From Dugesia japonica (Eukaryota), in the NCBI GenBank assembly GCA_001938525.1, contig MQRL01597604.1, forward strand, positions 1 to 35,186: a stretch of DNA of 35,186 bases, read 5' to 3'. Positions 1-28,357 of this stretch are shown one piece after another. How positions within the stretch are numbered: the first letter of the stretch is position 1; every line of letters begins with the position of its first letter. Made by a program: the position numbers and the translations under genes. Under the pieces are notes generated by a model. That model saw only the letters and a list, made by a program, of their open reading frames with translations. It did not search any database and was not told the DNA's origin.

Positions 1-290
1 ATATCCAATCCCACAATACAATCAAAAACTAAATTCTGCATTACTTGCATAGGATGCATAAATCGAACATTTCCGCACTGCATTCTACAATCCAGTTCAC
101 CCACTGCATTTACGGCTTGTCCGGTTACCGTTAGCATTTGGATTCCTTCTCTACGCATTCTAGCTTTATCTACCTCATACAACACTCGTCCATCGATGAT
201 TGATCTACACGCTCCGGTATCGATCATACAATCTATTTCTCTACCATTAATTGTCAATTTTTTTAGTATCACCCTACCACCAGGGCATTG
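1..290 (-). pseudogene. pol: Retropepsin aspartic protease (start of pol, element A)
   Basis: Manual translation, not in the ORF track: GRVILKKLTINGREIDCMIDTGACRSIIDGRVL...LTVTGQAVNAVGEL...FDCIVGLDI. It has the D-T-G-A catalytic motif and a C-terminal I-x-G-x-D motif, and resembles the PR at 35008 (RILKDLKIDGRILSALLDTGA). Confidence 0.9.
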
Positions 291-1419
291 TCATTGGCGC
301 AAGGCTTCTGGTATCCTTGTCTTTTAACTCTTCACTATCAGATATTATACTAAAATTGGTATCTTCGGGTGGCGCCGTTCCAATAATTTTGGCATCTGTT
401 ATTCCACAAGATTTCTTTTTAGCATCATGCTCTGCCAGAACTCGTCATTTGAGTTCCTCAAAGTCGTGTTGTCTGCGTATTCGTTGCAATTCATCATTTG
501 GTTAGTAAATTAACTCTCAATTCCCTGCTCCACAACTTGATTGCCATAACTGCTTCCATGCTTTACTGTTCCTCCGTACTCTCCCGTTCCCGGATCTGTA
601 CTGTCGTTCCTTTTCACTCCGATATCGGTTTAATTTTTCTCCTTTCCTAGATTGTCTTTCATCGTCACTTTGATATTTATTAGATTGTTTGTTATTCTCA
701 CAGTGTTGTGCTCCCATTTGTGGGTAACCATAACAATCAACTTCACTTTTGCCCTCGTGCTAATAGATATTATCTTTCACAATATTTCCATCTGATTGTT
801 GATTCCGATAATTCACTTGGAATACTTTCCGGTTCTTTCCATATCCGTAACTCGGTACCACTCTTTGTCTTTGTCGTTTGCCAAAAAAATCATCATCGCT
901 GTCATCACTACTACTATCTTGTCGTTTCCATGGTTTAAATACATCAAAATAGGATGTCTTCCTTGCTTTTCGCTTTCTCATGTCATCACATATTGAACGA
1001 ATTTGTTCAACTATCTGCCTATTACTTCCACCCACCTGACTCAGGTATTGTAATAACCTTCTGGTATTATGTAAGTCATTTGAATGACTATTGAGTANNN
1101 NNNNNNNNNNNNNNNNNNNNNNNNNNNNNNNNNNNNNNNNNNNNNNNACTTGGAATACTTTCCGGTTCTTTCCATATCCGTAACTCGGTACCACTCTTTG
1201 TCTTTGTCGTTTGCCAAAAAATCATCATCGCTGTCATCACTACTACTATCTTGTCGTTTCCATGGTTTAAATACATCAAAATAGGATGTCTTCCTTGCTT
1301 TTCGCTTTCTCATGTCATCACATATTGAACGAATTTGTTCAACTATCTGCCTATTACTTCCACCCACCTGACTCAGGTATTGTAATAACCTTCTGGTATT
1401 ATGTAAGTCATTTGAATGA
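291..1419 (-). pseudogene. Low-complexity charged linker between the glycoprotein tail and the protease
   Basis: ORFs 1041-1367, 760-1194 and 517-717. 1367 is in frame with glycoprotein ORF 1509-1913, and 1194 is in frame with 717. R/K/S/D-rich; product unknown. Confidence 0.45.
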
Positions 1420-1429
1420 CTATTGAGTA
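815..1429. repeat. ~283-bp near-identical direct duplication flanking an N gap (815-1097 / 1148-1429)
   Basis: The copies differ only in a poly-A length (7 vs 6), so this is probably a scaffolding overlap artefact. Confidence 0.8.
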
Positions 1430-3307
1430 CTACTCATTTAGCCCACGCTGGGAAAAATCCCATAATCATTTTCCATGACATTTTCCATGACATTTTCCTT
1501 TCCTTCTTTTATAAATCGAAACAAGCTAATAATTGTGTCAGCAACACTTTTATTATTTGTACTATAAAAATTATTCCCAATAATCCTGCCATTGCTTGTC
1601 CGAAAACTATAAATCGACCCCACATCTTCTTCATTACATTTGCTGTTGCTTGTTGAAAGTGATCTGGTGATAATAATAAATCATGATTCGGTCTCCACTC
1701 TGACGTAAATACCCCTCCAGCGACATACACAATGTTCGATAAAATTTGCATTCGTTTGACCCGAAATAACATGTGCTCTCTGGCCTTCTCCAGATCCTCC
1801 AATTTGTAGATACCACCTTCTGCTAGATTTAATGGGTTAAAAGTCTCAGTTTTATTGCTGGAAAATTTCTCACGAAGATATCTGCAGGTAGTCTCTCCAG
1901 AAAACTTATCCATTTATTGTTAGCCATTTTTAAATAAGGTCCAAATAAATTAGAACAGTTCAGTTTATTTGGTAAGAATCCTTTTGGTGATATTACTCTT
2001 GTAATAGGTTGTACATATCTTTTCTCTCCCATGTAGTTGATTTCCATCTCATTATAGCAAGTTTTCTCTCTCGATAAAATTGCTTCCACTCTCCTACATC
2101 GATAACTGAACATAACTTCGCCCACAATACGCCCAAATTGACCTTTTTCTAATGGTAACACTGGTGTTTAATTGTTGGGGTTTGTTATCGCTGTTACTAA
2201 TTTTGTCCGTAGTATTTCGCGATTTAACAAACAGTCATTATAGATCAGATCATGATACATTCGCTCCATAGATTGCTGCGCCAGGTGGAACAGGGTGTCC
2301 ACCTTATTATTCAGGTATAAATACAACTTATTATCTTGAGTCATAACTCCATCTCTCGCCTTTTCCAGTCTCCGCTTTGATACAAAGATTCTATTATAAT
2401 TCGTTTTATATGCAATTTCTCCACATTTGGCCTCGGATTTCTTACGGATTAATCTAATCATATCATTTGCATCGGTTGCTATTAATACGGTTGGTGTATC
2501 AGACCACAAGAGCGCTTCCTCCTTTGTTTTTATTTCCACATTTACTTTTCCAAAGGCTGGCATTCTCTCCTCTTTAACTGAGTAAACAATTTTCTTTCCT
2601 CGATACTCATCTAACAAAACCTCTCTAAGGAATGTCATTGTACATTCATGATGATTAACTTGATATACTAAGGTTGATTCTCCCGTATTGCAGGAATTAT
2701 CTGAGGCCAAACACATTGAATACATCTTCATCTTTTTGGTCGTTGTATCAAATTAAGCATCGAATTCCTTTAGTTCTGCTCTATAACTTTCTATGGCCAC
2801 AACTACAGTTGCATAGCCTAAAGGACTAGTGTATTTTCCTTGTACAGAAGTTCATGTTGCGTCCGAAATCGATCCTGCTGCGAATAAACGGGTTTGTACT
2901 ATTTGACCTCCTTTGGCATTAATTATCTTTCCTTCACCCACTGGTATTTTACCGGTTGTAAATCCAGATTCGCATTGTTGTCTTGTGAGGAGAACGGGTA
3001 TTACTTCCATACCTGGGGATATGACTGCCGAATAACTACTTTTCCCACACCAATATACAAATACTTGCATTGTTACTTTACATTCCCTCACCTTTGTCTT
3101 GTAATAATCAGATTCTTGGTACACAAAATAACTCATAGACTTTTGTACTACTTCCAACTTTTCTGGATTTGCTTCTGGACATTCTTCTGCATCGATTAAT
3201 GAATACACCGNNNNNNNNNNNNNNNNNNNNNNNNAATCATAAGCTCGGATTGCCGCACTTCGGCCCATTAAGAACATTAATATTAACACCATGAACATGG
3301 ATTGCAT
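1420..3307 (-). pseudogene. env: Chuvirus-like (Jingchuvirales-type) envelope glycoprotein, env-like
   Basis: Signal peptide MQSMFMVLILMFLMGRSAA, then IRAYD..VYSLIDAEECP, RECKVTMQVFVYWCGKSSYS, LTRQQCESGFTTG, GEVMFSYRCRRVEA..CYNEMEINY.GEKRYVQPITRVI..CS, TM FIVFGQAMAGLLGIIFIVQIIKVLL and a second hydrophobic segment SWKMIMGFFPAWAK. ORFs 2852-3577, 2168-2731 and 1829-2161 share a frame; there is one frameshift into 1509-1913. Confidence 0.8.
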
Positions 3308-3560
3308 ATTGCTGGTTCTTGTGCTGTGATTCGTTTCGGTTCCGTACTCATCGATATAATCTTTTAATAATTCATGAACCCGTTCATTTAATTTGTGACT
3401 TGAATTAGTTTTTGGTTTCATCTTTTCGATTATCCCATTCCACCCTCCGACAGTTACTAAGATNNNNNNNNNNNNNNNNNNNNNNNNNNNNNNTATTGGC
3501 AGGTTACTCAATTGAAATTTCATTCCTGGCCTACAACGAGCCACTGCTATTTGCGTTTGC

Positions 3561-5021
3561 TTAACCAAATATTTCAAATGCTACTAGTAATTTTGGAATT
3601 GTCGGGTGATTCGACAGTACCCCTTGTACTTCTTTTTCCATCGTTTCTCGATCCTTGAGGACTGTATGTTTTGCAACTGGTAATTTGACTATGATTGGTT
3701 CTAATATCGCTGCTAATTGTTTGCTCTCCGTTGACAAAATTGTATTTCCAATCCATAGTTTTAAATCTGGATACAGCGCTATTAATATCTGATGTACTCG
3801 CTTCTCGGTTGGTAACGTGTGTGATTCTAATTTCTCCATTATATCCGACGATAATTCGGCCATTTTTTTTATCTCTTGTTGGTTTTCGTCTGGTTGTACC
3901 ACCTGCTGTTGCTCCTTTTTGTCGACCTCTGGGTTTTTTATCCATCCACGTCTCCGCATCACGCATCACTCGTTGATGAGTTTCATTATCCGTCGTATCA
4001 TCCGTGTTATCCGTTGTCGTTTTCACTTCTTCAAACATTGCGGCAGGTGGTATTATTTCGTCTGCAATCTCGTCCAATCTAACTGATATATCGTCGTCTT
4101 CCAGATCTAGGTCCACTTGATTTGGATTAAATTTTCCTGACTTATTTAGTTTCGTTAATATTTCCGACTCTGACGTAGTCACTGGTTCCATTTGGGTTAT
4201 TTCAATCTCATCATCATCATCATCACGATCTAGAATCTGTTCGACTATTTCATCTTCTGTAGTATTTTCTGTTGTCGACTCCTTGATTGGCAATTTTCTT
4301 GGTCGTCCCCTTGATTTGACAACTACTTCATTCGTGTTATTCGATGTCATTGGTTGTACAAACGATTTTATCGATGTCTGACTTGATCCTAGTCCCGATT
4401 GCAATTTATTTTTAATCTCCTTGGCTGGTAATTTTCGTCTGATCAATCGTTTACTACCTTCCGGTTTGATGTACATTTTATTCTCTACCTTTTGTCGGAT
4501 ATCTAATGTTCCGATGATATCGTTGTTCAATAATTCCCGATTATTCAATAGTAGTACATAGGGTGGCTCGAATGATATTTTAGATTTCATCTGTTCTACT
4601 GTCTCGTACGCCAATTCGAGATTCTTGTTTAATGACCATCTGGTTCTACGGTTCTGAAGCTAAATATAAGTGGTAATACTTCATCTTGTTCGCATTTTCT
4701 CCATCTTGATATCAGTTGTTTAAATTGCTTTGGTCTCCATTTGCATTCCTCTTTACATCTGGATATTTTGTAAGTCAATGACGTCAACTCCTCAATTGAC
4801 AAATCGCTCTGCAATAATTGATCCGCTATATGCTCCCCACTGGTTTTGTTTATACTTTTCTCTTGAATTTTTGATATAAATTGATTTACCATATCGGCAG
4901 AATCTCCGCTACACTTTTTCGATTTACCAGTCATTACCACTACCATTTCTTGTGATCTACTCAACTCTTGATTTGATTTGTATTGTCGATGTAATCTCGG
5001 TCTCTGCTGTATTACCGCCAT
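3561..5021 (-). CDS. Unknown accessory region with an AT-hook (SRGRPRK, 4295-4315) and an acidic tract
   Basis: ORFs 4629-5021, 3574-4614 (346 aa) and the overlapping 3561-3962. RGRP core, DRDDDDDEIE tract. Confidence 0.5.
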
Positions 5022-5060
5022 CGTTTCTCGATTTACTAAGTCAATTTCCTCAATATGTAG

Positions 5061-5460
5061 TTACAATCCCCATGACAACTTTGGATTGATATTATCGACA
5101 TAATATCGTATTGTCTTTCTACATAAATTCTCTCTAATTGACTTAAACATATAAGGGTTTCTCTCATTCTCTCCACTTGCAAAAATATAAACATTCATCA
5201 TATGGCCTGGCCATAAACCTGATCTCTTTACTGGATACTCATCGTGATCATCTGTGATCTCTCCTCCACAATAAACTACAATATCCTCTTGTTTAGTAAT
5301 TGGTGTATTCTCTTTTCTTCTCGCTGTTTGTTTATTCAAATGTTTGATAATTTTCTTTATTAATTTTTCCCAGCTTGTCGTCGTTTTAATATCGAACTCC
5401 TTACTTCATTCATCCGGAAAATGTACTGTTACTTGCACATCTTGTTTTGATATGCTATCT
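5061..5460 (-). pseudogene. Ubiquitin/SUMO-like repeat unit 4
   Basis: VQVTVHFPDE*SKEFDIKTTTSWEKLIKKIIKHL...IVVYCGGEITDDHDEYPVKRSGLWPGHMMNVYIF fits a beta-grasp pattern. Confidence 0.55.
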
Positions 5461-5755
5461 GCATGAGTGATTGTTAACGTATGTATAAGCGTGTACAGCG
5501 CTTTTCCTCCTATCATAGACAATTGGTTTAATCTATTTATTATCTCTTGAATATTCAATTCTCTGTCATTTGACTGTAATTCTCGTAAAGGGTTAACGCC
5601 ATTTTGCCGTAGTTTGTTTCAAACTCTTCCACAATTCCCTTTCGTTTTCGACTTCGGCTATTCGTTCAATTTCTTCGTCAGTTACGATTCTCAAATATTC
5701 CATTTTATCTATTTCGTTTACATACACCTTTTACATTTTCGTTTACATACACCTT

Positions 5756-6412
5756 TTACATTCGACTAATTGATTGTAATTCAAATTTTTTCAGTTTTCC
5801 GTCATCTAATTCGAACGTTAATTCAGTAATCTCTCTTGGTCTCAATCGTAATTCGATCACATGTTGATCCCCTTTATTCAGTTTATCTCTTTGCATAATC
5901 ATGTGATCACACATAATCCGATATTTCTCAAATATTTTCTCCAAAGGTAATTTACTCAATATTGCTCGCAACTCACCTACTCGGGTGGTTTGAAATTTCT
6001 CAACTATGTTCGTCTGGATAGTCATGCACAAATTATCATCCATGGTAGCATAATAGATTTTTACCCCAAAATCCGATCCAACTGTTGTTGCTACGATCAT
6101 CTCTTGATACTCTTTAATTAATTCAGACCAGTTCCTCCGATGTTTCCATAATATATCATACTGATAATGCGCATCCCAAACTAAATTCAGCATCCTCCAA
6201 TACGTTTGTTTCGGAATTAATTCCTTCCTCTCCAATGTGATACTCACGTAAATGTTTATTGCAGCTAAGTTATGATAGTAGTCCTCATTGCTGTCCTCGT
6301 TGGAAGTAACTGATGTTTCACTCGGCGCATTCGCACTTCCGTCTCCCATATTATTTGCTTGTTTACCACTCTTTTTACCTTTATTTATTATTTTACTTGA
6401 AAATGATCTCAT
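5756..6412 (-). CDS. Repeat unit 3: helical YW-x-x-x-N module plus divergent ubiquitin-like domain
   Basis: KQTYWRMLNLVW..NWSELIKEYQEMIVATT..DF, then TTRVGELRAIL..EKYRIMCDHMIM..DQHVIELRLRPREITELTF. Confidence 0.5.
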   Translation of the reverse strand: MRSFSSKIINKGKKSGKQANNMGDGSANAPSETSVTSNEDSNEDYYHNLAAINIYVSITLERKELIPKQTYWRMLNLVWDAHYQYDILWKHRRNWSELIKEYQEMIVATTVGSDFGVKIYYATMDDNLCMTIQTNIVEKFQTTRVGELRAILSKLPLEKIFEKYRIMCDHMIMQRDKLNKGDQHVIELRLRPREITELTFELDDGKLKKFELQSISRM

Positions 6413-6499
6413 TATAAAAATTCTAGCTGGCCCTGGCTGCGTTCTCGATAACTGTTCATCATTAACTTCTGTAGTAGTTTTAATTACAACGCTCGGTAT

Positions 6500-7171
6500 T
6501 TAAAATTTTGGTAATTCACTTGACTGGATTACCAGTGGTGCCCTCTTTTCTGACAACGGCGCGATATATTTGATTTGGCCTTTATTCAACGAAATCATTA
6601 TATTTTCAGTTGTTCTAAAATAGAAATGAGGCCAAATTAGTTCGTTATATAAACGCATTCTCCGACTCTCTAACAACGTAATTACCATAGTAGTTCCAGG
6701 TTTCAGACCATATTCATAAATATGGGCATTTGCATCATTGATGCTAACTACTGACACCGGTGTACAAACAATATATTCGCCTATGAGTTTTGCCCACTCA
6801 ACATCCTCCAATGCATTGAGTAAATCTTTTACCGTCGTTCTTTTCGGTTTTAACACTCGTGGGATGTTCCACTTTGTCGCCACTGGTACTTTCTTCAAAA
6901 CCTGATCCATCGTAATGTATGCAGTTCTATCTTAATCCGGTCTCCAGGCTTCCACTGCTTTGATTTTATAATCCTCCACGGTTGTATTTTCTAATAACTC
7001 TTTCTCATACTCAGGAATTATTGGTCTCCACTTTTGATTGGTCATCGTGTCCATTTGTTCTGGCTCCGCTAATTCAACCAAATGATTCATTAATTTCCAA
7101 TAAGCCTTTCTGGTTAATTCATCTTTCAATAATTTAGCATTCTTTATGACTGTTTCTACATAATTATACAC
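6500..7171 (-). pseudogene. Repeat unit 2: helical module plus ubiquitin-like domain
   Basis: RKAYWKLMNHLVEL..KWRPIIPEYEKELLENTTVEDYKIKAVE (6932-7171) is in frame across one stop with TTVKDLLNAL..EYIVCT..NDANAHIYEYGLKPGTTMVITL (6500-6910). Confidence 0.6.
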
Positions 7172-7247
7172 TCTTGTTTTGNNNNNNNNNNNNNNNNNNN
7201 NNNNNNNNNNNNNNNNNNNNNNNNNNNNNNNNNNNNNNNNNNNNNNN

Positions 7248-7936
7248 CTCTTGTTTTTCGGGTCATTGGCTGTCTGATCTCCTTTACCACATCCGCCAGA
7301 AATCCTTGCTGTAATTTACTCATTAATTTGGTTGTAGTTGTTGACTTCGTTCGCAATAGCACTATGTATTTGTGATATTTCTTTTCAAATGATTTTACTA
7401 TTTGCTCGGTCGTTTTGAAATCCAAATAATATCACAATGGTCGTTTAATGCGATGCATTTCTACTAAATCTATTAATTTTATTGTTGTTTTACCTGGCCA
7501 GACTCCNNNNNNNNNNNNNNNNNNNNNNNNNNNNNNNNNNNNNNNNNNNNNNNNNNCTTTCAATAATTTAGCATTCTTTATGACTGTTTCTACATAATTA
7601 TACACTCTTGTTTTGATCGCGCTGGATCGCTTTTGGTTATCATACTGATTTGAGCCATGGTATTTTCTGTTTTCGATGCTCCTCTTGTTTTTCGGGTCAT
7701 TGGCTGTCTGATCTCCTTTACCACATCCGCCAGAAATCCTTGCTGTAATTTACTCATTAATTTGGTTGTAGTTGTTGACTTCGTTCGCAATAGCACTATG
7801 TATTTGTGATATTTCTTTTCAAATGATTTTACTATTTGCTCGGTCGTTTTGAAATCCAAATAATATCACAATGGTCGTTTAATGCGATGCATTTCTACTA
7901 AATCTATTAATTTTATTGTTGTTTTACCTGGCCAGA
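7248..7936. repeat. Identical duplicated blocks between N gaps (7248-7506 repeats ~7681-7940; ~7123-7181 repeats ~7557-7615)
   Basis: Identical ORF translations at 7156-7425 and 7590-7859 bounded by Ns; likely an assembly artefact. Confidence 0.75.
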
Positions 7937-8520
7937 CTCCATATTTCGATATAAGTGCTTTGCATAATCTTGTTCTATCACTCTGTTTCGAGAACACAAA
8001 ACATACTCTCTGATCGGCTTTGGCCATGCCAGCTCATTTACTGCTTGTAATAATCCACTCACAGTAGTATCCTTCAACACAATTTTCCTAGTATCTCTTG
8101 ATATTTTAATTCGGTTGAATCTTCTTCTAGGGCTGGCTCGTAAGCATTAATACTATAATCATCTGGTTTCGTGTGACTACGAATTTCCTATTCATATTCT
8201 TGCGCCTGAGAAAATCACACTTCACTGGTGTACACATCTAATTCACTGGACTCCATTAACTCCAACATATGGTTCATCATCGCCCAGTATGCTTCTCGGT
8301 AGACTACTGCCTTGAATGTTTGAATCATTGTAACTTTATCCTCCACCTGTCTTGTTATCACTGCTCTTTTTGCTGTTAATTTTGCTGATAGTTCTACCTC
8401 CATTGGCTGAGCTCTCATCATATTTATTCGTCCTTGATTATTCTCTTGCTTTTGCATTCTCTCTCTAGCCACTTGCTGCTCCTCCAATTGTAATTGTAAA
8501 TATTCCTGCTCTTGTTTCAC
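7590..8520 (-). pseudogene. Repeat unit 1: helical module plus ubiquitin-like domain (frameshifted)
   Basis: REAYWAMMNHMLEL..V*FSQAQEYE*EIRSHTKPDDYSINAYE; DTTVSGLLQAVNELAWPKPIREYVLCSRNRVIEQD / LISKYGVWPGKTTIKL..PL*YYLDFKTTEQIVKSF. It aligns by eye with unit 2. Confidence 0.6.
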
Positions 8521-8757: not shown

Positions 8758-10060
8758 TTATTGCATTGGTGATTTTGTGATAAAGCAATTTTCCGATTTA
8801 TGCCCTGGTTTCTGGCAATTTGTACAGATCATTGCCGATCTGCAATCTCTGGCATAATGACTGAGTTTACCACAGTTATAACAGGTAATTCCCTGGGGTT
8901 GCTGCCACGATCCTTGTCTATTTCCTCCATTTGATCTCGAATTATTATTTGATTGTCGCGGTGGAGGTCTATTCTGACCAGGTGACAGCCCTCTCAATAA
9001 TGGTTGCGTTCTGGCAGGTAAAAAATCTGCAATTTTCGGTTCGCTTTTCTCTTCCTCTTTTTGCTCTTCAATTTTAAAAACACTTGCTTGTTTTTGATTC
9101 ATTTCCACCTTATGGGCTACCATTGCCGCATTTATCGCCATATCTACCGTCGTTGGCTGAGATAGATTTACCCATTTTTTTACTTCTGCATTTCTAAGCC
9201 CTTTAATAAAAATACCGAGCACCGTTGGATCATCCAACTTATCTTTCATCGCCACTTTCCCGAGTTTACGTAATTCTGTTGCGTATGCCTGAAAGGTTTC
9301 ATCTCTTAGTTGTCTTCAACCAATGAACACTTGAATTTCTTGTCCTTGCAACATTAATAGCTTGAAGGTTTCTAATAATACTTCCTTCGCCTTTTCCCAT
9401 GGATCAACGGGTTCTTTACTACAACTTATTTTATCCCAATAAATAGTTTTAGCTGAATCCTTCAAATATAAAGGTAATCAATCGGCGCCTCTCTTGTCAC
9501 TCCATTGACACGCTTGTATATGTATCCATAGGCTGCAATAAAATCATTTAATTTCTCCGGTTGTCCGTTAAAATAATCTCCATTAAACTCTGCTTTCTAT
9601 TCCGAACTCCGTTTTGATTTCTGTCCACTTGTACTCTTGTCATCATCTGACAATTTCGAATTCTCCTCGTTGTCTTTTTCTTTACCGGTGGTTGACATGG
9701 TATCAGTATTACTTGTTTCCAAACTTGATTCCGAGTACTGTCGAATTCTACTTGACGCTCGGGTTGTAGGTACACTATCACTAGCTGATTTAGATTCGTA
9801 TAAACTTTCTAGATCAAGGTCTTCTACCAAATTGGCTCTTGAAGGATTTGATTCGGTTATGGTATCAAATTCTCCTTGTACGTCGTCGTTAGACGGGAAC
9901 GAATTGGGTGATTTGGATGCTGAAATTGATAGAGATTGGTTGAATTGTCGAGACACTCTGCTGTAGGAGACCGATTGCTTTATTTTGGCTGGATTGGGTC
10001 GTTTAATTACAAATGATCTTCTATGTTCTGTACTCCCTCTAAAATTATATCCGGATTCCT
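8758..10060 (-). pseudogene. gag: gag of element A: Ser/acidic N-terminal region, capsid-like domain, two zinc knuckles
   Basis: YFNGQPEKLNDFI, LPLYLKDSAK, WEKAKEVLLETF, RQLRDETFQAYATELRKL, FIKGL; CYNCGKLSHYARDC and CTNCQKPGHKSENC. Confidence 0.88.
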
Positions 10061-10543
10061 GATTATCTAAGATTGTTTATTTGGTTGATTCTCAGATTGA
10101 TTGGTTTATCGAATTTTGGAATATTGGAATGTTGATCGTTTTGGTTTTCTGAAAATCAAATAATATTGCCCTACGGCATCTGCATGCATTCAAATATTAT
10201 TATCGCATTCATTAATTGACTACTTTTAACTACTTTTATCTACTGATTGATACTTCTTATTACTAATAACTACACTACGATACATTATCATACTTGATTT
10301 CTATTATTTTAGCAGCGTATTTACGTAATTTACTTTTATTACTCAATCATTTATTATACATAAGCAGCAATTTTAGTCGATTGTGTCAACTGAACTCCCC
10401 ACTTCAATATTTATTGTTCTGGGACAGCTCCANTCAGATTAGTGATTCCAATTATAATTTATATAGTTTACAACTTACAATATTCCCATACTAATTTGTC
10501 TGGGCATTTTCAGATGTGTCTTCGACACATTACTCCACTAAAC

Positions 10544-11074
10544 AGAACATTTCCGCCTGCTCTTGGCAATTTGTCCTCAGGACAAATTTCGCAAATTGAT
10601 CGATGCCCAATTTATCTCCCTTTAATTTCCCATAATAGAACACTCCAGCCGGTTCCTGTCAATTTATCTTCCAAATAAATTTTTTCCTAATTGACGATTA
10701 ATTCAATTCGACTCCTTTTCTCGCGTTTGGCAATCCCACCTGCCCCTGGTAGTTTATCCTCCGGATAAACTTTTAATATCAATTATCAATTACTTAAATT
10801 TAATCCAACCTTCATTTTGAACCAATTCCGCCTGTTCCTGGCAGTTTATACCCTTGATAAACTTACGTGACTAATCAATGATTCCATTATCTCCATTTTA
10901 CATTGTCCATGTATAGGAGCATTTAATCATTTTGATACCATTCATTTCTCTTCGATTCGTTTTCATTTGCTAATAATTTTAATTATACCTTTCCTTTTAC
11001 CACTTCACATTAGTACCCCTCAATATCTACAATGGAACTCTTGCGCCGGTTCCTGGCAAATTTCCTTGTGAAAT
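10544..11074 (-). ncRNA. Array of five structured cis-RNA units (hairpin plus H-type pseudoknot) in the leader upstream of gag
   Basis: Units at ~10544-10588, 10637-10682, 10729-10771, 10819-10863 and 11034-11074; the first four have a ~92-nt period. Compensatory changes are seen in all three helices (see findings). Confidence 0.65.
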
Positions 11075-11137
11075 CTTTTAAGTTCAAAGCTCTCCTCCCA
11101 TAATAAGTATCAATAAAATTCTCCTCAACTAATTCAT

Positions 11138-11220
11138 TTTAACTATACACTCGGACAGTTTTCATTACTTCTCCCAATTTAACTATATCCTCGGATCGTT
11201 TTGTTATGTCTCCCAATTAA
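11138..11220. repeat. Two imperfect ~40-bp tandem repeats
   Basis: tttaactatacactcggacagttttcattacttctcccaat / ttaactatatcctcggatcgttttgttatgtctcccaat. Confidence 0.6.
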
Positions 11221-14200
11221 ACGATAATTTCACAATTTCATTATTTCCGACCAGGTCTTCCTTAGTTCTCTTTTCGGTGGCCAACCGACAAAGTATCCGG
11301 AATGAATTACTGGTAATCAACTAGCTACTCCAATATTTGTTTCGATATATTTCATTTAATTCTGTCATCATTTTTCTTTCAACTAAATTTCAACCTTTTT
11401 ATACTAGTTTATTTGCTTTGAACACTCTCTCTATGTAGCCGGTAGTCTATTATTTCAGCTCCAGCTGGGCGACAATTTTGATCCTCAATTTACACTAATA
11501 ATTCACTATCTCCATACTTGAGTCAGTTGACAGTCTATTTTAATTCAGCTTCAACCGCTCACTAATGTAAAGGTTCTCAGTCAGGATCCCATGATCCAGC
11601 TGATGTGTAACTACGACGCTACCCGCGATCGCATTATCAAATATTTTTCCAAAAATAAACAACAATACTGATGCCACGCTTGAGGCTAACTATTGTATCA
11701 TCTTGTCAACACTGAGTCCTCTGATCGCCAGATACCACGGACAATTTGCGGCCTTGTCCTTCCGGGATTTTTCACCCTAAAATCTAAAACTCGGTAGAGC
11801 TACGGGTAGTTAGCTGTAGGGGCGCACTCACGCCAACCGAACGCCATAAGTGGTTAGCTTAATAGATGTGGTGCTCGTTGCCGGCTCCTTCCCCTGAAAT
11901 TCCTGAGTTTATCTCGCCTGGACTAAACTCCATTCTCCCGGCATGAAAGTCAGACAAAGTATCCAACTTCCGAGATCGGTACTCCTTATTCGAAGCGTCG
12001 AAGCTCGAATTCCTTCAAAGCATATCCACGGAAGATCTTCCACTCCAATAACTACTTCGAAGATTCTTGTCCAACAGTCAATATCAATTTCCATCATTTC
12101 AGTCATTAGACGATCATTGCAGCTGTCCCTTCAAAGTTGATCAGGCTTCTAGTTCCAGCTTACTAATCGCGAGCCCTATTCTCCAAAATGGCATCCACCA
12201 TTACGACATCTTTTTCTCGGGTAATATCACATATCTATGGTTACGCTCGAAATTGTCTCTCTCCAACTCACTACGATAAAATCTCCAACCATATTTATTT
12301 CTAAATTCAAAATTAATTATCTCATATGAAACCCTCAATTTAATCACAGCTAATATCAATTCACCCTACCATATTTAATTCCACCATTATTCAACTATTC
12401 GGTTATTGTTTAATATGACTCCGTAACCATAGAACCCCCCTGTTACACCTCTTCCCCATCTCCGTTCATTTGTCGATCGAATTCTCAGTTACCACTCACC
12501 TGGGTGGCCTCCCTGTGTTGACTGCCCGATACCCATCCTACTCTTCTTGATAAAGTATAGCAATTTCTTCTCGAAATACATTTCATTGATTATCTCCATT
12601 AAATTATTTCAAATCATTTGTCGCCTCATCTTCTCCGTAAATTCGGTTAGTTTCTCGTCAATCTCATTCATTCTCTAATCCCCTTGTATTCTCATTACTT
12701 TCGTTTACTATTACTCGATTATCGATACAATATCGATACTACTCAATTTATTCATTATTCATCAATAACATTTAGCATATCATTGCCGCTCAACTCTAGA
12801 ATACATCTCCAGTAAAGTCTCTCGTCACAATATTAAATATCATTGTCATTTATTACTCATCCTCCATTTATGTTTCATTTATGAGCTCATCTCCTCACCT
12901 CGTTCACTTTAATATTATTATTCGTTCTGATTCATTAACGCCTACGATAGGATACGTCTCGATCCATTAATTTACTCCCAACATTTCTTCTCAGCGGAGG
13001 TTCTAATCTCAATAGTTCTCGCTTTACTGCTCATTTACCTTTGAGTTATCGTCATCATCACTTCTACCTTATTCTGCTCTGCTTCATTTACATTTAACCA
13101 TCTCTTCAACCCATTAAAAATTTATAACTCGCCTTGTTGCCTGTTATTTACTCATTCATTGCTGCATAAGTTTCAATTGCGCTTCTGTGACTATATTATT
13201 ACTGCTAATTGATTTTCCCACTCCACAAACTCGCTTCTCGATATGGTTTTCTGCTGCTAAATGCATGTTAAAATTTATTTAATACCTGCCTCATCACTAA
13301 TAAACTATTAGTGCTGTTTCTTTTGATGTATAAACGTCACATTTCTTTTGACTCCCATCCAGTTTCTACTACTGTTATCTTCGTAGTCAACTGACCTGTG
13401 TTTCAATCTAATTTTCTCCGCTTTTATCTACAATCCATGCTGATTACTCAACAGATATTTCATGATCAGCTGTAACAGTTTAGTTTTGACGTTTTACTCA
13501 AACTGTCCGCCCTGATCATTGTTTATTTACCGATTTATTCTAATACGCGTTGCTCGAATTGAGGCTCTCCGAATGAGACGAGTTGCGAGATCCTCTTGCC
13601 AATCTCACCACTATGCTCATTCAAAATCACTCCATCATCATCTCATCATTATTCGTTTATTTATTATACTTTATTTAGTTTAATATTTATACCCGCGTTG
13701 GATGCTCCATAGCCCATAATCCGGAGATGCAGTGCGTGTGAGTTCTGGTTTCTCTCTCACACACACTTCACTTCCAAATCATTTGGTATATTCATATTCC
13801 TACACATTCGTTTATCAATTACTCATTAGATGTTTAATATAAGTCGATCTCAATACTCGGTGTGTGCAAGTTCTCATGACCCACTCTCACCCACCAAGCA
13901 TTTGAAACACCCTCTCATTTTTATCATTATCTCATTTCATATTTAAGTTAACTGATGCTCATGGTAAAATATTCTCGCTGTCGAATGAGAGATAGTCCAA
14001 CTCTTCGAACTCTCTGTCATTTAGCAGCTTGTTTATCTCACTCTATTTGTTGACGCTCATCATAATCTTTGCAACACCACCAAAAGACACACAATAACTC
14101 GATGCCTGTGCCGAATCGCGATACAACAATTTTGACGTAACGCTTTTACGCTATCTGTATACTCGTATAAATTCGTCTCTCAATCTTTTATTACCTCTCT

Positions 14201-15537
14201 AAACGCTCAAATTTTTTACTATTCGCATGTAAAGATCTCGTTATGTTTTGCTTGTATCGTGTTATGTTCCTCTTCTCTGCGTGTAGTTCTCGTATGTATT
14301 ATCGATTGTTTTCCTCAGTATTTATTTGAATGCGTGCTATNTTCNTACTCNTCTGCATGTCTGTATTAACCAAGGTTATGTACTAAACGAACTTAATACT
14401 TCTACTGTACTTTAATTTTACTTTAATGATTAATGTTTACGAGACATTTTTAAATTATCTATACTAAAAAATAAAATATCAAAACATTTCCATTTTTGAT
14501 TTAGTTTTAATACTCTAATTTATACCGTTTCGATACGAGTTAAAATTAATTATTTATAGTATAATAATCATTAAAAAAATAAAATATCTAATAATAACAA
14601 TATCTAAATAAAATATTCCAGCACTAAAATTATTATTCAAATATTACACAAAATTTACTAACAAAACTCTTTAAATAAAATTTACTCAACTCCTTTACAA
14701 AATATTACTACAAAATTTACTAAAAGCCTAAATTTTCTAAAATATTAATCAATTTATTTACCAAATTCTTTACTGAAAATCAAGTATAGTAGTACTGGTA
14801 ATGATTATAACTTAACAATAATAATAAATAAATATCGGACATTAAATTATCAAATTTAATGCGCAGTTAAGAGAACACTAATAAAATATTAGTGCGCAAA
14901 TGAAGAATATTATCAAATTATAAATCTTACAAGATCCGAGTGCCATTCCCATCGTCAAATTAACTGCATAATTTCCCAAATTTATCCGCATATTTGAAAC
15001 ATAATTTTAATAGTCAATGCTATTCAATTACAGCAATAATTTTTGGCAAAATTAATCATTTTCCATTCTAACATTTCAGCGTATTATCATTTCCGATTTT
15101 ACAAATGTGCATATCACAATTATATATCTCCTCGGCCGTTATTTGATCGTCGAATTTCATTAATTCATCAACATCCATTTGTTAATCGCTTTCCGCATTT
15201 AATTCGCACGTTGCATCTTCATTCATTTACAAAATTGGTTCTACTCGATTCATTATCGTTGTCATAGCTATATTTCATTTGTGATTGCATCATTAAAAAT
15301 TATTTTAACTAGATAGCCAAATTTAAAACTTAGTTTCCTTGAAAATAATAATGCATAAAAAAATGAATAAGTATCCCGGCTTAAAAGATTTATAACCCCC
15401 AAAACACTTGTTGGGTTTTTAGGATTTACAATAATCTAATATCTATATTTTCATAATCGAATATTGTAATCAATAAATAAATCTACTTTANNNNNNNNNN
15501 NNNNNNNNNNNAAAACCACAAGCGTTTGAGTCACCTC

Positions 15538-18500
15538 TGTGACATGCCCCTTATTTCCTCAGGTTCAGCGCGACTTTGTGGTATCGACCTTGCTCAGTAT
15601 TCCGTCATAGTGATTGCAAAATTTGAATCTGGCCATACATAACCATTATAAATGAGAAAAACAAACTAATGCGACATCGAAAAATTTTATTAATCTAATT
15701 TTCCGCATCCAAATCGACCGTGGTGTGGTTCACTCTGGACCTTTCAGGTGGTTCTCGATACAACAACCACAGCGATCGTAAATTAGCAAATGTCACCGCC
15801 TCGCGATCGGCATAAACTTTGATTGTATCAGCCATCAAATGGTTTGCTTGTTGTAGAGCCAACTCCTTCTCTTTAAGCTGTTGATGTTTGAGGTTGTGTT
15901 TGGTGGCCTGACTCNNNNNNNNNNNNNNNNNNNNNNNNNNNNNNNNNNNNNNNNNNNNNNNNNNNNNNNNNNNNNNNNNNNNNNNNNNNNNNNNNNNNNN
16001 NNNNNNNNNNNNNNNACTAAATTATAAGGAGAATTTTAATTATTTTATAATTGAAAATGATCTAAATTTGTAGACTACCTCATATCGCCCTTACTTGTGA
16101 ATTTATATATATTATACTATTAAAACCCGTGCCATATAAATATACAATGTCAAATTTCATAATTGGGACGTTTTCCGTCACAACCTCACCGCTATCTGCC
16201 ATTTCACTCGAGCAAAATGTCTCTATCAATCGCTTGCTCCTCAAACCACTAACACCGAATAAACATAAAATANNACTAAAATCGTTATATCAATACACTA
16301 CCACCTCTGCAGCATTTTTTACTTTACTTGTGACCTACATATCACACTCTCTGTTCATTCGTATCACTCTGATCCATCAGATTACGGATTATTTCCCGCT
16401 CCTCGATCTCATCGTCTATCTCTGTAGCACTACTGAGTGAAAAAACACGAACGATTTTTGGCGAAGTGCCAGATAGCTCTCCATGAAGTTGTTTGATCTG
16501 TTTCTGCAGCGACTTTCAAGCTCGTTCCAACTGACACTCTAACGCATTTATTCTATTATTTTTTACCACCAACTGTAATCGGACCGTCTCGTTATCCGCN
16601 NNNNNNNNNNNNNNNNNNNNNNNNNNNNNNNNNNNNNNNNNNNNTATCATGGTCGGCACTTCGTTCCACTCAATATAATATCGGCCTACCTCGTCAATGT
16701 AGGGCCAGATATAACGAGGCCTTTGGAGATTGCGTCTACTTTTAACAATCTAATAGACCATAAACAATTAAATAAAGTAATGAAATAACACGAGCATTAA
16801 ATTGACAACATCATTGTGGGCTAATTGTGGAATGATTTTCTTCGGCCTATGGCCTAACATTTGGCTTCCAATGTTATATGACGCGAACCAGGAAAGATGA
16901 GCCTTAATTATGCATCTTTTCTCGTTCCCGTCATTGTCTTATGCTAGAATGGATTTTTCGTAATCATTATCAACAATTAATCGAAAATAATTTAGTCGGA
17001 CGATTACTCAAATTTAGGGTTGATTTATTATTCTTTTAAATAATATTTTACCTGAATTCATTTTATCACCTTAACGGAGTAAATATAATGAATACAGAGA
17101 TAGGTGAGATATTTTATTATTATTATCGTGACTGATATCGTCAAACCTTAAAGTGTGAGATATTTTATTGATAATGCAATAATGAATATTTAGAAAAATT
17201 GTACTTAATTATCAAATGCAGAATGAATACTATGGTAAATCAATGAAAATTATTTTATTATGATGATTTTATTAACATTAAATAGCTTGACTAGAACAAT
17301 AAAAAATAAAAATAAAAAAAATACTTAGTGACCAAAACACGAATGGACCCACTAATTTCCCATGAATTCAAACTCATAGCATTTTAAACTCAAATAACCA
17401 AACAATTACTCCCGAGATCGATCAAGCTCCGAATTCCTGCTAACTCATAATTTACAGATAATCCTACCAGATGCATTTTCTGGATTTGCTCTACGATGAC
17501 TCTCATTTCTTTTCATTCAGGTTATTCGTGGATAAGTAGAACCTCATAATATTTAGACACTCATTACTGATCGGAATATATCCGGAGCTCGATATATCCC
17601 AAAGAACTCAAATTTGGGCAATGGCACTCGTTTACATAAATTCCAAAAATGGGGTAAAACTATATATAAAGAACAAAAATTACTTTTCGTTTATCCAGAG
17701 TCCAAGATCCAACATTGAGAAATACGCGTTGAGTTATTAGCTATAAATTTAAACAAAGAATCTTTAATACTCCNCTATAAAATTTAACACAAGAATTTTT
17801 TTTAATACTCTGACTGATTGCTTCGCGTCAGCCCGTTTTATTTCCCCTAGGATAGAGAAATTATTTGGTTCTCGATTAGCCTGCAAATAGTAATGCGTAT
17901 TTCATTATCTGGATTTCTGATTAGCTGCCACAGTCCTAAATTCGGTGAGCATACCTCAGTGTTTCTGCACACGAACTCGGACTTTTGAATTTTGGTAAAT
18001 TTCAGTCATCACCTCATGTGACCTATGTGATGCATCTGTTAGTTTCTAGGCAAAGTCCTTGTCTGAACTTCTGGTGAATAATCAGTTTCTTTGTTTATGT
18101 ATGACTGCTATCATCCGATTCAGACAAGGTAAAAATATTACTGGACCAAATTAATTACTTCTCTAATAACATTAAACGTTAATTAGCGTTATTTATAATA
18201 AATAAAATGGGTCGTAGAGGCCCTTCTAATATATTATTATATTATTGTAGATTATTTTTATTATTTAATTCCTCATTCCCTTTCCACTCTTATAAATTCT
18301 ATTTCCGTATGATAAAATTTGGGTCCTCTACGCCCGAGTTTCGATTTTCGATATTTTAAGAATTAATTTTATAATAATTATACTAATAATAACTACATAA
18401 TAATAATAATAATAATTTCGCATATAATAAGCCATTTTCTGGTCCAGCACATCTACTTTTCCCTCTATTGTCCATATTTTCCTCGTTTATTTTCACACTT

Positions 18501-18700
18501 TACGGAGCTACAATTTTCTATTCTTGAATGTGTTTCAACCCAACACATATATTATTTTCATTAAATTCTATACAGAACTACTTAGATTTAATATACTTAA
18601 TATACTCAATTTGATCAGTCATACACAAAATTTTTGTAAGTATACATAATCTCGCACCATTCTAATCACATTTCAATACAATTATATCACTTTTATTCAA
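15538..18700 (-). repeat. Putative long 5' LTR of element A (distal end undefined)
   Basis: The minus strand reads ...GGGGCATGTCACA|GAGGTGACTCAAACG, an LTR-like CA end followed by an imperfect PBS-like (T)GGTGAC. No second LTR is in the window to confirm it. Confidence 0.3.
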
Positions 18701-19255
18701 ACTTCAATACAAATATACTTAATGTTCAATAAAATCTACAGCAATTTTGACAGGATGTATACAAATTTCATAAAATAAACCTTTCATCAAAAACATACAA
18801 ATTATAGTCAATTAATACATCAGAAACAACATTAAATTAGTCATTGAAGCCGATTTTGTCTATTTAGCTATAAATTTTTCTCATTTATGTGTAATATAAC
18901 TACAATATGGGTGAAATTCGATAACAATACATATGCAGCAGAACAAGAGTCAAGTATATAGTAATCAGTTCTTATTGTGTGAATTATTATGTGAATATAA
19001 TATCTATAGTAAAAAAAATAGTCACTTTATTGTGGAAATAGACACTTTATCATAGAAATACAGGATTCATCTCAGAATATACATTTTTCGTCACATATTA
19101 TTCGGGCTTTATTTCAGAAAATATACGATTCACCATAGAAATTAAGAGTTTTACTATGGAAAATAAGCTTTTAACATAGAAAATATTAGTTATAACGTAA
19201 AAATTAATAATATAATTACAATTATTGTTGGAATTAACCATTGATCACATTTGAG

Positions 19256-19366
19256 ATTTCATTAAAATAAGAATAAGCTTCGATCAAAATAAAATTTATT
19301 TGTAAAAAGATTCAAATTTTCGACAATAGTCTTCTTCAGGAACATCTTCAAGAGTATGTTCCTGAA
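19256..19366. mobile_element. Palindromic foldback element/MITE, left part (interrupted by element B)
   Basis: Joining it to 23601-23683 rebuilds a ~190-bp near-perfect palindrome centred on ggaacat-cttcaagagt-atgttcc. Confidence 0.85.
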
Positions 19367-19457
19367 TGTTATTGTAATTAAATAAAGGAACTTGAGTTTA
19401 CTAAATTTTATTTAAAATCTACACAAATTAATTAATATTATTAAAACACATATCACA
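19367..19457 (-). repeat. 3' LTR of element B (91 bp)
   Basis: Direct repeat of 23510-23600 with 3 mismatches, preceded on the minus strand by the PPT. Confidence 0.95.
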
Positions 19458-19459
19458 AT

Positions 19460-19471
19460 CCCCTTTCTTTT
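19460..19471 (-). other. Polypurine tract of element B
   Basis: AAAAGAAAGGGG ends 2 nt before the TG of the 3' LTR. Confidence 0.9.
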
Positions 19472-20620
19472 AAGAGTTCATCACATATTTGGGATTTGGC
19501 TTCCTCTCTCTCGTTGAATATCGCCTTTTGCATTGTTCTGAGTTGTCTATAAGAACACGCTTTATATCACTTTTGTTAGATCTCGAATGTGTGGCACTAA
19601 TGATTGATTCTTTTACCGTTTCTTTTTTATTTCTAAATACTCCATGGAATCGTTTTACTTGGTGAGGATTATGACGAATTACTTTCATTCCATCATCTAA
19701 TTCTAAATAATAATTACTGAGAAACTTGCTAACCATCCACGGTCATGTATATATTTTTTTTAGTAACCCTGTCTCTTCTGTTTTTACCAATACCCAATCA
19801 CCAATCTTTAACATAGTGTTCTTATTTTCTGCTTTATTTTCTTTTGGAATCTGTTTTCTCTTTTCTGTAATTCTCTCCCTTTGTTTTTTTAAAGTTTTTC
19901 TGAAAATCCATCTTGTCAATTCCTACATTGGCAGTCAAAATATCTGGTTTTAAATCCATCTTTTTTCCAAAAAGAATTTCATAAGGTGAGACCTCCATTT
20001 TTTTGTTATTTGATTATCTCATACTTAGTTCAACAAAAGGAATTGCTTTAACCCACGATTGGTTATGCGACTTACAAGATGCATATAATTTGTCTTTGGC
20101 TGTTCTAAATACGCGTTCTATAAGCCCATTACCCTGATGATAATATGGTGCTGAAAATGATTGCTTTATTTATAATTTATTCCACAATTCCTTCATTATT
20201 TCCGATTTAAATTGTGTTCCGTTATCAGAATGAATTATCCTGGGAATACCAAAGTACGCTATTCATCTTTCAAATATCATTTCGGTAACTGTCTTTGCAG
20301 AAATATGTTTCAATGGTATTAACGCTATGTATCTAGAAAAAACATCGATGATTCCTAAAATATATGAATATCCCTCGCAATTTGGTAGTGGTCCCGTTAT
20401 ATCGCAACATATCATTTCAAATGGTTCTATCGCTGTAAAAGAGTTTTGGATATTGTAACCCATTTAATTTCCCTGCTTCCACCCAGCACATGGCATACGA
20501 TTTGCCACAAACTTCTCCGTATCTTTTTCCATGTCTATGCATTCATGATATCTCTTGATATTAGTCAAAGTTTGATTAGCGTTTGGATGACCTAATCGAC
20601 CGTGAAAATATTTTAANNNN
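19470..20620 (-). pseudogene. pol: Integrase of element B
   Basis: FHGRLGHP (zinc-binding), ICCDITGPLP, IIDVFSRY, IHSDNGTQF, GLIERVF (DDE); stops and frameshifts present. Confidence 0.9.
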
Positions 20621-20879
20621 NNNNNNNNNNNNNTTTCATTATACTCTTTATGGGTATCTTTTAATTCATGAATTTGTCGATAACCTTCATCATCTGAATC
20701 GCTTTTGTTGGACTTTGACACTTTAACATTTCGTCTAGTTTTTTGATCGATATGTTTATATTTCACCTTGTTCGCACTGAAATTCTCTGGAAAGTGCATC
20801 TGCGTTGGCATGTTATTTTCCTTTTCGATGCTGAATTTCAAAATCATACATACTTAGTTCATCAATCCAGGAGCAGTAC

Positions 20880-21540
20880 TGTGATGTATTTGGACTTTTA
20901 CAATTCAACATTCATGTTAAACTCTTATGATCTGTACGAATAATAAATTTCTTCCCCAATAAATAATGCTTGTATTTCTTCACAAAGTAATAAACTGCCA
21001 TAAGTTCTTTCCTGGTTATACAATACATTTTTTCTGCTTTCGAAAACATTTTAGATCCATAGCATATTACTTTTTTTTCGTTATCTTGAATTTGACTTAA
21101 AACTGCTCCCATTGCAAAGTGACTAGCATCTGTATACAATACGAAAATATCATTGCTATTTGGAAACGATAAAACTGGTGCGCTTGTGAGAGCATGTTTC
21201 AGATTTTCGAAAGATTCCTTATGAAATTCTTCCTATGTTAAATCTACCTTTTTTCCGTTTTTCGTGATGTTCGCATCTCTTAACAAATCTTCTAGAGATT
21301 TAAAGATTTTGGCATATCTCCAAATAAATCTTCTGTAATAATTGCAAAATCCTAGAAAACTTGATAATTCTTCATTTGTCTTAGAAATACTCCAATTCTT
21401 TACTGCAGTAATTTTTTTCTGGATCAGTTGTCACTCCGCTTGATATTATGTGACCCAAATATTTTACTGAAGTTTTCAAAAAAACGCATTTCTTTGGAGA
21501 TAACTTAACTCCTGACTGCTGTATCTTCTCTAATACCATT
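20880..21540 (-). pseudogene. pol: C-terminal RT remnant plus RNase H of element B
   Basis: KLSPKKCVFLKTSVKYLGHII, FLGFCNYYRRFI, YTDASHFAMGAVLSQ, YCITRKEL, IRTDHKSL. No YxDD motif. Confidence 0.9.
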
Positions 21541-21675
21541 TAAAAGTTCAAATTTTCGACAATAGTCTTCTTCAGGAACATCTAGAAAGAACATGAAGAA
21601 GACTATTGTCGAAAATTTGAACTTTTTACAAATAAATTTTGTTTTGATCGAAGCTTTATCTTATTTTAATGAAAT
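21541..21675. mobile_element. Second, one-arm-truncated copy of the same palindromic MITE, inside element B
   Basis: ttcaaattttcgacaatagtcttcttca...tgaagaagactattgtcgaaaatttgaa...ttattttaatgaaat matches the flanking MITE. Confidence 0.85.
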
Positions 21676-21722
21676 TATTTTCTGTATCATCTAAAATCTC
21701 AATGCAGCCTAATCTCGTGTTT

Positions 21723-22028
21723 CTAAACATTGTAATATCTTTTTTTAAAGTTAATTATTCTTACTGTGATTTTACCAGTTTCTCTAACATAAGACACACT
21801 ANTCGCAGCTAAAATCACTATCTTAGCTAACTTATCTTTATATAGACTAAATAAAACTTTCTTCAAACAAAAAATATCGCTATCTACACTCGCTAAAACA
21901 GATACTTCCTCTTTTCTCAAAATTGTAACTGTATTTTCTAATATAACTCTTACTGTACACATTTGAGCCCCCTTCCCACTTTTCGCACTATTATCTGGAC
22001 CCTCGGACACAGTGCTCTTTAGTTTTCC
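21723..22028 (-). pseudogene. pol: Start of the pol frame in element B (post-protease beta-rich linker)
   Basis: ORF 21723-22010 lies in the -1 frame relative to the PR ORF and resembles the post-PR region of ORF 34064-35008 (KITVRIINF vs KVPVNVLNI). Confidence 0.6.
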
Positions 22029-22501
22029 GCTAACTCTCTTATTTTGGATATGAAAGGTACTTTTATTTCATCTACAGTTACACAGTTTAGTTTTGATAAG
22101 ATCGAAATGTTCATCTTTTTCATATCTCTTATTCCTATTATGACTTTTGGGAACAATTTATCTACAATAGTCATCATAATTTGATTAGTTTTATTTCCTA
22201 TAGTTACATTTATAAAAGAATATCCAATTACCTTAATTGGTGAGCCATTTGCACTTGTTAACGTCTTGTTTGATCGAAGCTGCTTGACTTTTTCTTTTTC
22301 TCTGATCATTTGAAATAGTTTGAAATCCACGATGCTGGACTCTGCTCCAGAATCTATAAAAATTTTCTCTTCTTGTTGTTCTACTTTGCCTTTGATTATT
22401 GGTTTGTTTGCTGCGGGTTCGCTTCTTGTATCTGATATCATTGTTCTTTGTCCTATGTGAATTGGAAATTTGTGTCTTGAACCTCGAATATATTCATCCA
22501 A
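22019..22501 (-). CDS. Aspartic protease of element B
   Basis: IFIDSGAESS, LTSANGSPIKVIG, VIIGIRDM. Confidence 0.88.
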   Translation of the reverse strand: MDEYIRGSRHKFPIHIGQRTMISDTRSEPAANKPIIKGKVEQQEEKIFIDSGAESSIVDFKLFQMIREKEKVKQLRSNKTLTSANGSPIKVIGYSFINVTIGNKTNQIMMTIVDKLFPKVIIGIRDMKKMNISILSKLNCVTVDEIKVPFISKIRELAEN

Positions 22502-22668
22502 TTTAATAATATCGTCTGGGTAGTTGATATTTCTTTTTGTTTCCTTTTGTCTTTTAGTTTTCCTTTCTTTCGAAACAATTTTGAAAAATTCATTATTATC
22601 TTCAGATTCCTTTTCANNNNNNNNNNNNNNNNCATCATATTCAATATTAGAATTGTCATTTGTTTCTT

Positions 22669-23510: not shown

Positions 23511-23600
23511 GCTATTGTAATTAAATAAGGGAACTTGAGTTTACTAAAATTTATTTAAAATCTACACAAATTAATTAATATTATTAAAACACATATCACA
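23510..23600 (-). repeat. 5' LTR of element B (91 bp)
   Basis: TGTGATATGTG...ACAATAGCA. Confidence 0.95.
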
Positions 23601-23683
23601 CTGAAGAAGACTATTGTCAAAAATTTGAACCTTTTTACAAATAATTTTATTTTGATCGAAGCTTTTTCTTATTTTAATGAAAT
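23601..23683. mobile_element. Palindromic MITE, right part
   Basis: Reverse complement of 19256-19340. Confidence 0.85.
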
Positions 23684-25742: not shown

Positions 25743-25762
25743 TCTAATATTTTATATAATAA

Positions 25763-28285: not shown

Positions 28286-28357
28286 TGTTAATGTTATTGT
28301 TAATATAAAAAATAATGATAATTGGAAATTAATAAGCTCAAAAGTTTACTATAAGAA

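Follow-up and report, generated by a model that had tools for sequence, protein, structure and literature searches.

The window analysed here comprises 35,186 nt of Dugesia japonica DNA (contig MQRL01597604.1, forward-strand positions 1 to 35,186), and the envelope sequence on its minus strand is, with a probability of about 0.9, the decayed envelope domain of one copy of a giant Ty3/gypsy element of the Burro type, that is, of a GAG-ENV-POL errantivirus with a gB-type envelope. Gypsy elements that carry a fusogen of the chuvirus kind have been published before, and the present analysis is mainly annotation. It adds a link between two seemingly unconnected literatures, the one on Burro and the errantivirus paper of 2026, as well as structure-model support for a class III envelope and a Bcl-2 fold in the domain preceding it, and tandem conserved proteases.

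The envelope runs on the minus strand from position 3307 to about 1434, a span of about 625 codons in the window translation. Its N-terminus from 3307 is hydrophobic, with an internal signal-like stretch at 3307-3244, and is followed by a cysteine-rich ectodomain of predicted class III gB type and a transmembrane (TM) helix at 1595-1539. The initial annotation had described a gene of about 630 codons with signal, ectodomain and TM helix, recognized by a series of four motifs. All four were found by minus-strand read-through, beginning at positions 3244 (AYD..YSL....EC), 3082 (CKV..CG), 2122 (GEV..C..VE) and 2059 (CY.E..I.Y..TRVI), respectively; the cysteine following AYD falls inside an assembly gap of the window (N 3211-3234) and is visible in sister copies only. 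The motifs, the length and the TM helix of that description were thus recovered, but the sequence is not a separate ORF, and its frame is interrupted five times by stops (near 2853, 2754, 2169, 1510 and 1435) and once by a frame change between about 1910 and 1830. The window copy itself is dead. When read through with X, the envelope matches the Pfam family PF24664 (Monjiviricetes_fusion) with an E value of 4.4e-49 over amino acids 3-472, and its C-terminal piece matches the same family with 3.4e-21; by sequence comparison, the match is far above chance level. At least 94 matches to the envelope, 46-90% identical, are present in the same genome (87 scored of 3,680 candidates), and ten positions, nine of which are cysteines, are invariant across 103 aligned envelope sequences.

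The envelope has no ORF of its own; its frame continues stop-free from the upstream domain (ORF 2852-3580), and in sister copies it continues into the proteases. Open frames span the gag-accessory joint in the copy L016, the region from the accessory part through the Bcl-2-like domain and the envelope to the first protease in L013 (1752 aa), and the region from the envelope through two proteases to the start of the reverse transcriptase (RT) in L014 (1103 aa). Because the frames cross these joints, the envelope reads as an in-frame domain of a polyprotein and not as a stand-alone captured gene. Its top database relatives are likewise polyproteins, of 1,250-4,844 aa, and in distant polyproteins, for example P0005, P0010, P0012, P0016 and P0018, the envelope is in frame with pol. 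One of these, P0010 (HBK71150.1), an envelope-pol polyprotein of the envelope's own group, has been assigned in its database record to a Flavobacteriaceae MAG, as a hypothetical protein; its presence there is probably due to contamination of the bin with host sequence.

An AlphaFold2 model of the envelope was built for window 3208-1910 from a 103-row alignment and had a mean pLDDT of 90.4. Foldseek comparison of the model with the PDB gave 104 matches at E<=0.001, the best of which was herpesvirus (HSV) gB (E 6e-10); a PDB sequence search with the envelope gave three matches, all of them chance. Among viral models, the best matches were the glycoproteins of soybean thrips chu-like virus 4 (E 4e-26) and Tacheng tick virus 4 (E 1.6e-25). 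These results, together with the PF24664 match, agree with the earlier assignment to the chuvirus-type class III fusion glycoproteins. Since xinmovirus and qin-related glycoproteins score close behind the chu-like ones, and identity to the nearest named viral glycoproteins is only 15-20% throughout, the model points to a member of a broad class III fusogen family and not to a chuvirus gene specifically.

The carrier of the envelope is, by sequence, a Ty3/gypsy element and not a BEL/Pao element, as the initial annotation had proposed. The best solved relative of the family RT in the PDB is that of Ty3 (E 1.5e-51), and in a 15-row RT tree the 10 envelope-linked RTs lie on one side (94/99), apart from the 3 BEL rows. 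The zinc-knuckle count from which the Gypsy assignment had been argued does not carry it: the gag of the window has two CCHC knuckles, against the triple expected for BEL/Pao, but three were counted in the gag of 5 out of 19 further loci (L022, L067, L069, L089 and L091), so that the number of knuckles is not diagnostic of the carrier class. A glycoprotein borne by a BEL/Pao (Anakin-like) element, or a lone chuvirus insertion among Gypsy fragments, has precedents in the literature in so far as such elements exist, and BEL/Pao elements are present in this genome, as indicated by 40 Peptidase_A17 matches. It has nevertheless next to no probability here: several copies have the envelope and a Gypsy-type pol in collinear arrangement, no BEL row is matched significantly by the family RT (lowest E 0.37), and a DUF5641-linked BEL glycoprotein, P0040, is found on the opposite side of the envelope tree described below. 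Membership of BEL/Pao was accordingly rejected, the RT lying outside that group and neither Peptidase_A17 nor DUF5641 having been found in the element.

The envelope tree was a quick LG tree of 48 rows, taken from the best 150 of 2,124 matches to a family-built profile plus 2 cluster members; 28 of 122 available stand-alone rows were used, and the group labels of 5 fragments were set by hand. A branch with an SH-aLRT of 99 separates 20 retroelement-side envelopes from 28 stand-alone glycoproteins, among which are those of Tacheng tick virus 4 and P0040. The window envelope and the chuvirus thus lie on opposite sides of a tree that is unrooted and contains a single named chuvirus protein. The RT tree is likewise without an independent root. 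The RT and envelope trees of the matched elements have three groups in common and differ in the placement of P0010 and P0012. Because the two trees largely agree, they fit a long co-descent of envelope and pol, i.e. an old pairing and not a fresh chuvirus capture.

It had been proposed that a chuvirus glycoprotein was captured anew and independently by this Gypsy element. For a recent event of this kind it can be said that the nearest named viral structures are chu-like, and that the trees, being unrooted, are compatible in either direction with an ancient transfer, such as the acquisition of the gene long ago from a virus of the Monjiviricetes type. The low identity to viral proteins, the similar scores of xinmovirus and qin-related ones, the separation of the 20 retroelement envelopes from the stand-alone glycoproteins, and the sharing of most groups between the RT and envelope trees all speak against it, and Chary and Hayashi (PMC13524379) argue for an ancient pairing. 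We therefore consider a recent capture very improbable; elements of the kind have moreover been published (PMC13524379, PMC6431247). The phylogeny supported the placement of the RT apart from BEL, and it set the envelopes apart from the viral ones, in a group of their own that largely tracks the RT.

The element has the order LTR, gag, accessory region, Bcl-2-fold domain, envelope, protease, CCHC knuckles, second protease, RT, RNase H and integrase, and the same order was seen in sister copies. Both the polyprotein and the length of about 33 kb, the latter obtained by adding overlapping match lengths, were assembled from overlapping copies, with no single contig or intact copy covering the whole element. 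The 5' LTR, delimited by copy comparison, occupies 15409-18545 (minus strand), is about 3.1 kb long and has 7-bp inverted ends (TGTTGGG...CCCAACA). Its start at 18545 is the point at which many copies begin with unrelated flanks, and the 3' tails of L061, L096, L097 and L099 run into the same LTR start after a shared sequence; its end at 15409 is where matching stops in L129 and L136, with the flank beyond demonstrated for L129. Short ORFs lie within the LTR on the minus strand (15695-16021 and about 16350-16700), with similar ones in L041 and L127, and a Pfam scan of the piece scanned gave no match. The element Troyka (PMC12440569) was rejected as a candidate because the LTR ends here are TG...CA and not CG...CG. 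The LTR is followed by a long, apparently non-coding 5' leader (10077-15408, minus strand), which is common to the copies at about 75-95%; no canonical tRNA primer site was seen by eye after the LTR, and ARAGORN reported 0 tRNAs. At the other end, the 3' tail reaches about 8.4 kb beyond the break in the pol of the window and then meets the same LTR start. The family tail (L061:937-9387; L059:4949-5158) contains several unknown ORFs, among them cysteine-rich and coiled-coil ones, one that has TM-like segments, and what looks by eye like a remnant of a RING domain. Four copies, L039, L042, L146 and L006, are internally deleted derivatives joining distant parts of the element, and are possibly non-autonomous.

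The gag (8758-10076, minus strand) is broken and consists of a low-complexity N-terminus, a capsid region and two CX2CX4HX4C knuckles at 8883 and 8826 (zf-CCHC, E 2.9e-10); a Retrotrans_gag match (E 3.7e-6) was obtained in the sister copy L022. Between gag and envelope lie about 5 kb of accessory coding sequence. At 5720-8500 (minus strand) this contains a region in which a domain of unknown function is apparently repeated about three times; self and cross tblastn placed the units at 8496-8149, 7159-6845 and 6262-6056, and the domain had no match in Pfam or in the ESM Atlas. It is followed at 5178-5438 (minus strand) by a possible ubiquitin/SUMO-like domain, 36% identical to a domain of L013 (E 2e-14); the assignment is weak, and the corresponding ORF of the sister L014 matched Rad60-SLD (E 0.0025) and UBL families below the cut-off throughout.

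Directly before the envelope, at 3392-3842 (minus strand), lies a domain that has a Bcl-2 fold according to the model of a sister copy. In the window it contains a frameshift near 3578 and an N gap (3464-3493), and the model was made from L012, which is 90% identical to window 3579-3842. The model had a pLDDT of 83 and matched Bfl-1 with a VIA Z score of 11.3 (rmsd 2.7 over 127 residues); the top 36 rows of matches were all Bcl-2-fold proteins, after which Z dropped to 4.4. Sequence-only matches of the domain were weak, and Foldseek gave no match at E<=0.001, the rows listed being all of the Bcl-2 family. ProQ-like matches in the ESM Atlas (under 0.9) were dropped in favour of the Bcl-2 fold result. 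Behind the integrase, a sister subfamily (L066/L070) carries a BIR (E 9e-14) and a RING domain (E 8e-15); tblastn found neither in the tail of the window subfamily.

Downstream of the envelope, a cytoplasmic tail or linker (285-1433, minus strand) leads to the first aspartic protease (3-284, minus strand; DTGA at 227; gag-asp_proteas, E 6e-8), within which the element runs off the contig. Within the linker, 815-1097 repeats 1148-1429 across an N gap, a probable assembly overlap. A pol half of the same family lies at the other contig end (31184-35186, minus strand), with a CCHC knuckle at 35175, a second protease (DTGA) at 34933, a weak dUTPase-like stretch, RT-RNase H at 33920-32868 and an integrase truncated at 31184. 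At the DNA level it is 83-88% identical to pol in L019, L021, L031 and L032, copies in which this envelope is likewise present. In longer copies, the envelope is followed by protease, CCHC knuckles, second protease, RT, RNase H and integrase. A dUTPase-like stretch between protease and RT was seen in one of three ORFs scanned (L029, L014 and L019), below the cut-off (PF00692, E 0.057). In family coordinates (L019, L021 and L031), the two contig ends (window 1 and 35186) are only about 200 nt apart, which means either that a pair of head-to-tail copies broke at one and the same place or that the scaffold is collapsed or circularly permuted.

The remainder of the window contains other sequences. 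A second, small decayed Gypsy element with gag CCHC, protease, RNase H and integrase zinc finger and with short terminal repeats lies at about 19250-23740 (minus strand), nested with palindromic repeats, and an RNase H fragment of another Gypsy element at 30655-31236 (plus strand) abuts the truncated integrase. A very AT-rich block at about 24600-29100 (plus strand) has a match to the adenovirus-type protease Peptidase_C5 (E 8e-4, below the cut-off) and contains an ORF of 406 aa of no known kind, ORFs with TM segments and one with a C2H2 zinc finger; it resembles a Maverick/Polinton fragment. Near-exact repeats flank N gaps at 7123-7506/7557-7940, 26920-26993/27283-27356 and 27622-27776/27827-27981, and they are probably scaffolding overlaps and not real duplications.

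The comparison of dN/dS among copies, which the initial annotation had suggested, showed purifying selection. The envelope ratio against the window copy was 0.12-0.35 in all 29 copies with enough overlap, and the pooled value was 0.24 (14 copies). Pooled values were 0.14 for each protease (4 copies each), which places both proteases under purifying selection, 0.14 for the RT and 0.21 for the acidic linker; the accessory region had 0.40, and non-coding controls from the 5' leader in an arbitrary frame had 1.13 and 0.78. The reading frame was thus constrained while the family spread. Since all pairs share the branch of the window copy, the identity filter biases the ratio downward, and the acidic linker also has 0.21, the ratio cannot be read as specific to the envelope. 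That the whole frame, linker included, is constrained would also suit an envelope that is retained for some non-infectious function, such as the anchoring of pol to membranes, in an element that moves within cells only. We regard this as unlikely, because a complete multi-domain class III ectodomain with its invariant cysteines would be hard to square with an anchor alone. As judged from the sequences and a dN/dS of about 0.24, a formerly infectious element is plausible. In four raw RNA runs, 4, 121, 86 and 76 reads of the 10-13.6 million read fell on window 1150-7180, and 12 of the 287 had at least 95% identity; this low signal comes mostly from other copies and has no bearing on infectivity.

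From what is generally known about signal sequences and about the polyproteins of retroviruses, the following course may be proposed for a Burro-type element with this envelope. The LTR would drive one long RNA, to be read as a single polyprotein. The internal envelope signal would thread the ectodomain into the ER, where signal peptidase would separate the envelope from the gag and accessory/Bcl-2 portions. Transfer would stop at the TM helix, so that the proteases and pol stay cytoplasmic, tethered to the envelope tail until released by protease. After maturation, budding would yield particles that bear a gB-like trimer and can fuse with other cells, the passage being probably from the soma into stem or germ cells, and the Bcl-2-like modules (BIR/RING in the sister subfamily) may damp host cell death.

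Because signal peptidase, cutting at the envelope within the polyprotein, would part gag and pol from each other, pol could not ride in as Gag-Pol. It may instead ride tethered to the envelope tail, with its own extra protease and, in the window subfamily, a nucleocapsid-like second CCHC cluster; we put this packaging idea forward tentatively, as a possibility with the odds somewhat against it. In its favour, both proteases keep DTG and the low ratio given above, and among distant relatives, P0153 (4844 aa) has 7 aspartic-protease-like stretches in one polyprotein and P0007 has 3. Against its generality, the second knuckle cluster is absent in one sister subfamily, and several distant polyproteins have one protease stretch only. 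If true, it would explain how a gag-env-pol polyprotein could make particles, and it would be an undescribed assembly route, used by a retroelement that is infectious and modulates apoptosis in an animal capable of regeneration. No description of tandem proteases with a second knuckle cluster behind an envelope was found in the literature searched; Grohme 2018 with its supplements, Repbase and the eLife figure supplements lay outside that search and may already show extra proteases.

Chuvirus glycoproteins have been described in mosquito BEL/Pao elements (Dezordi 2020; Dezordi 2023), and Gypsy fragments beside such glycoproteins are noted in the latter paper (PMC10084718). The window envelope has in common with these and with the chuvirus (Jingchuvirales) glycoproteins the family PF24664, the fold and the cysteine pattern. 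In contrast to the mosquito carriers, the carrier here is Gypsy, and the envelope is embedded in a polyprotein, has 15-20% identity to the viral glycoproteins and falls in a separate tree group. Closer are the gypsy elements with a chuvirus-like gB-type envelope and gag-env-pol order, nine of which are listed for flatworms by Chary and Hayashi in the sections concerned. With these Platyhelminthes errantiviruses (e.g. Smed_errantivirus_5 and _6) the window element shares a gypsy pol, a gB-type class III ectodomain with signal and TM helix, and the gag-env-pol order. The listing of six Smed elements in that paper is without a tRNA primer site, as is the window LTR by eye in its canonical form. 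By hand count, 70 of 157 ungapped positions (about 45%) are identical to the Smed_errantivirus_6 envelope; among 12 Smed-Smed pairs, 11 have 31-38% and one 64%. Their elements are intact by the inclusion rule given there, whereas the window copy has stops and frameshifts, which bears on activity and not on descent. The main text of PMC13524379 contains no mention of Burro, Bcl-2 or multiple proteases.

The planarian Burro/GYPSM1 elements (Grohme 2018 and Jurka 2007, as described by Arkhipova and Yushenova 2019, PMC6431247) exceed 30 kb according to the passages on them in that review, and have a gag with two to three CCHC knuckles, a SUMO-like and then a Bcl-2-like domain, and an env that lies in frame between BCL2 and PR and matches mononegavirus glycoproteins; a dUTPase-like stretch before RT and a BIR in the family are also reported there. 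Apart from PMC6431247, only PMC10175614 surfaced as Burro literature in our search; derepression of Burro1 upon PIWI knockdown is reported in part of PMC8532177. The comparison made here is with the published description of Burro1-4 and GYPSM1. Burro is given one ORF1 of about 5,000 aa; in the window family each joint is spanned by an open frame in one copy or another. Matches to a SUMO-like domain and to a dUTPase-like stretch were obtained here below the cut-off. The differences are that no MATH was seen and ankyrin was not found in the window family, the latter occurring in the distant P0153 only, with BIR confined to a sister subfamily; that those passages liken env to gypsy Env, whereas the window envelope is modelled as class III gB-like; and that they list one protease, whereas the window family has two, plus a second knuckle cluster in some subfamilies. 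Common to both are a Ty3/gypsy RT, RNase H and integrase, a gag with two (window) or three (some sisters) CCHC knuckles, a Bcl-2-like domain right before env by the L012 model, an env with mononegavirus-glycoprotein kin in frame between Bcl-2 and protease, and a size over 30 kb with long LTRs.
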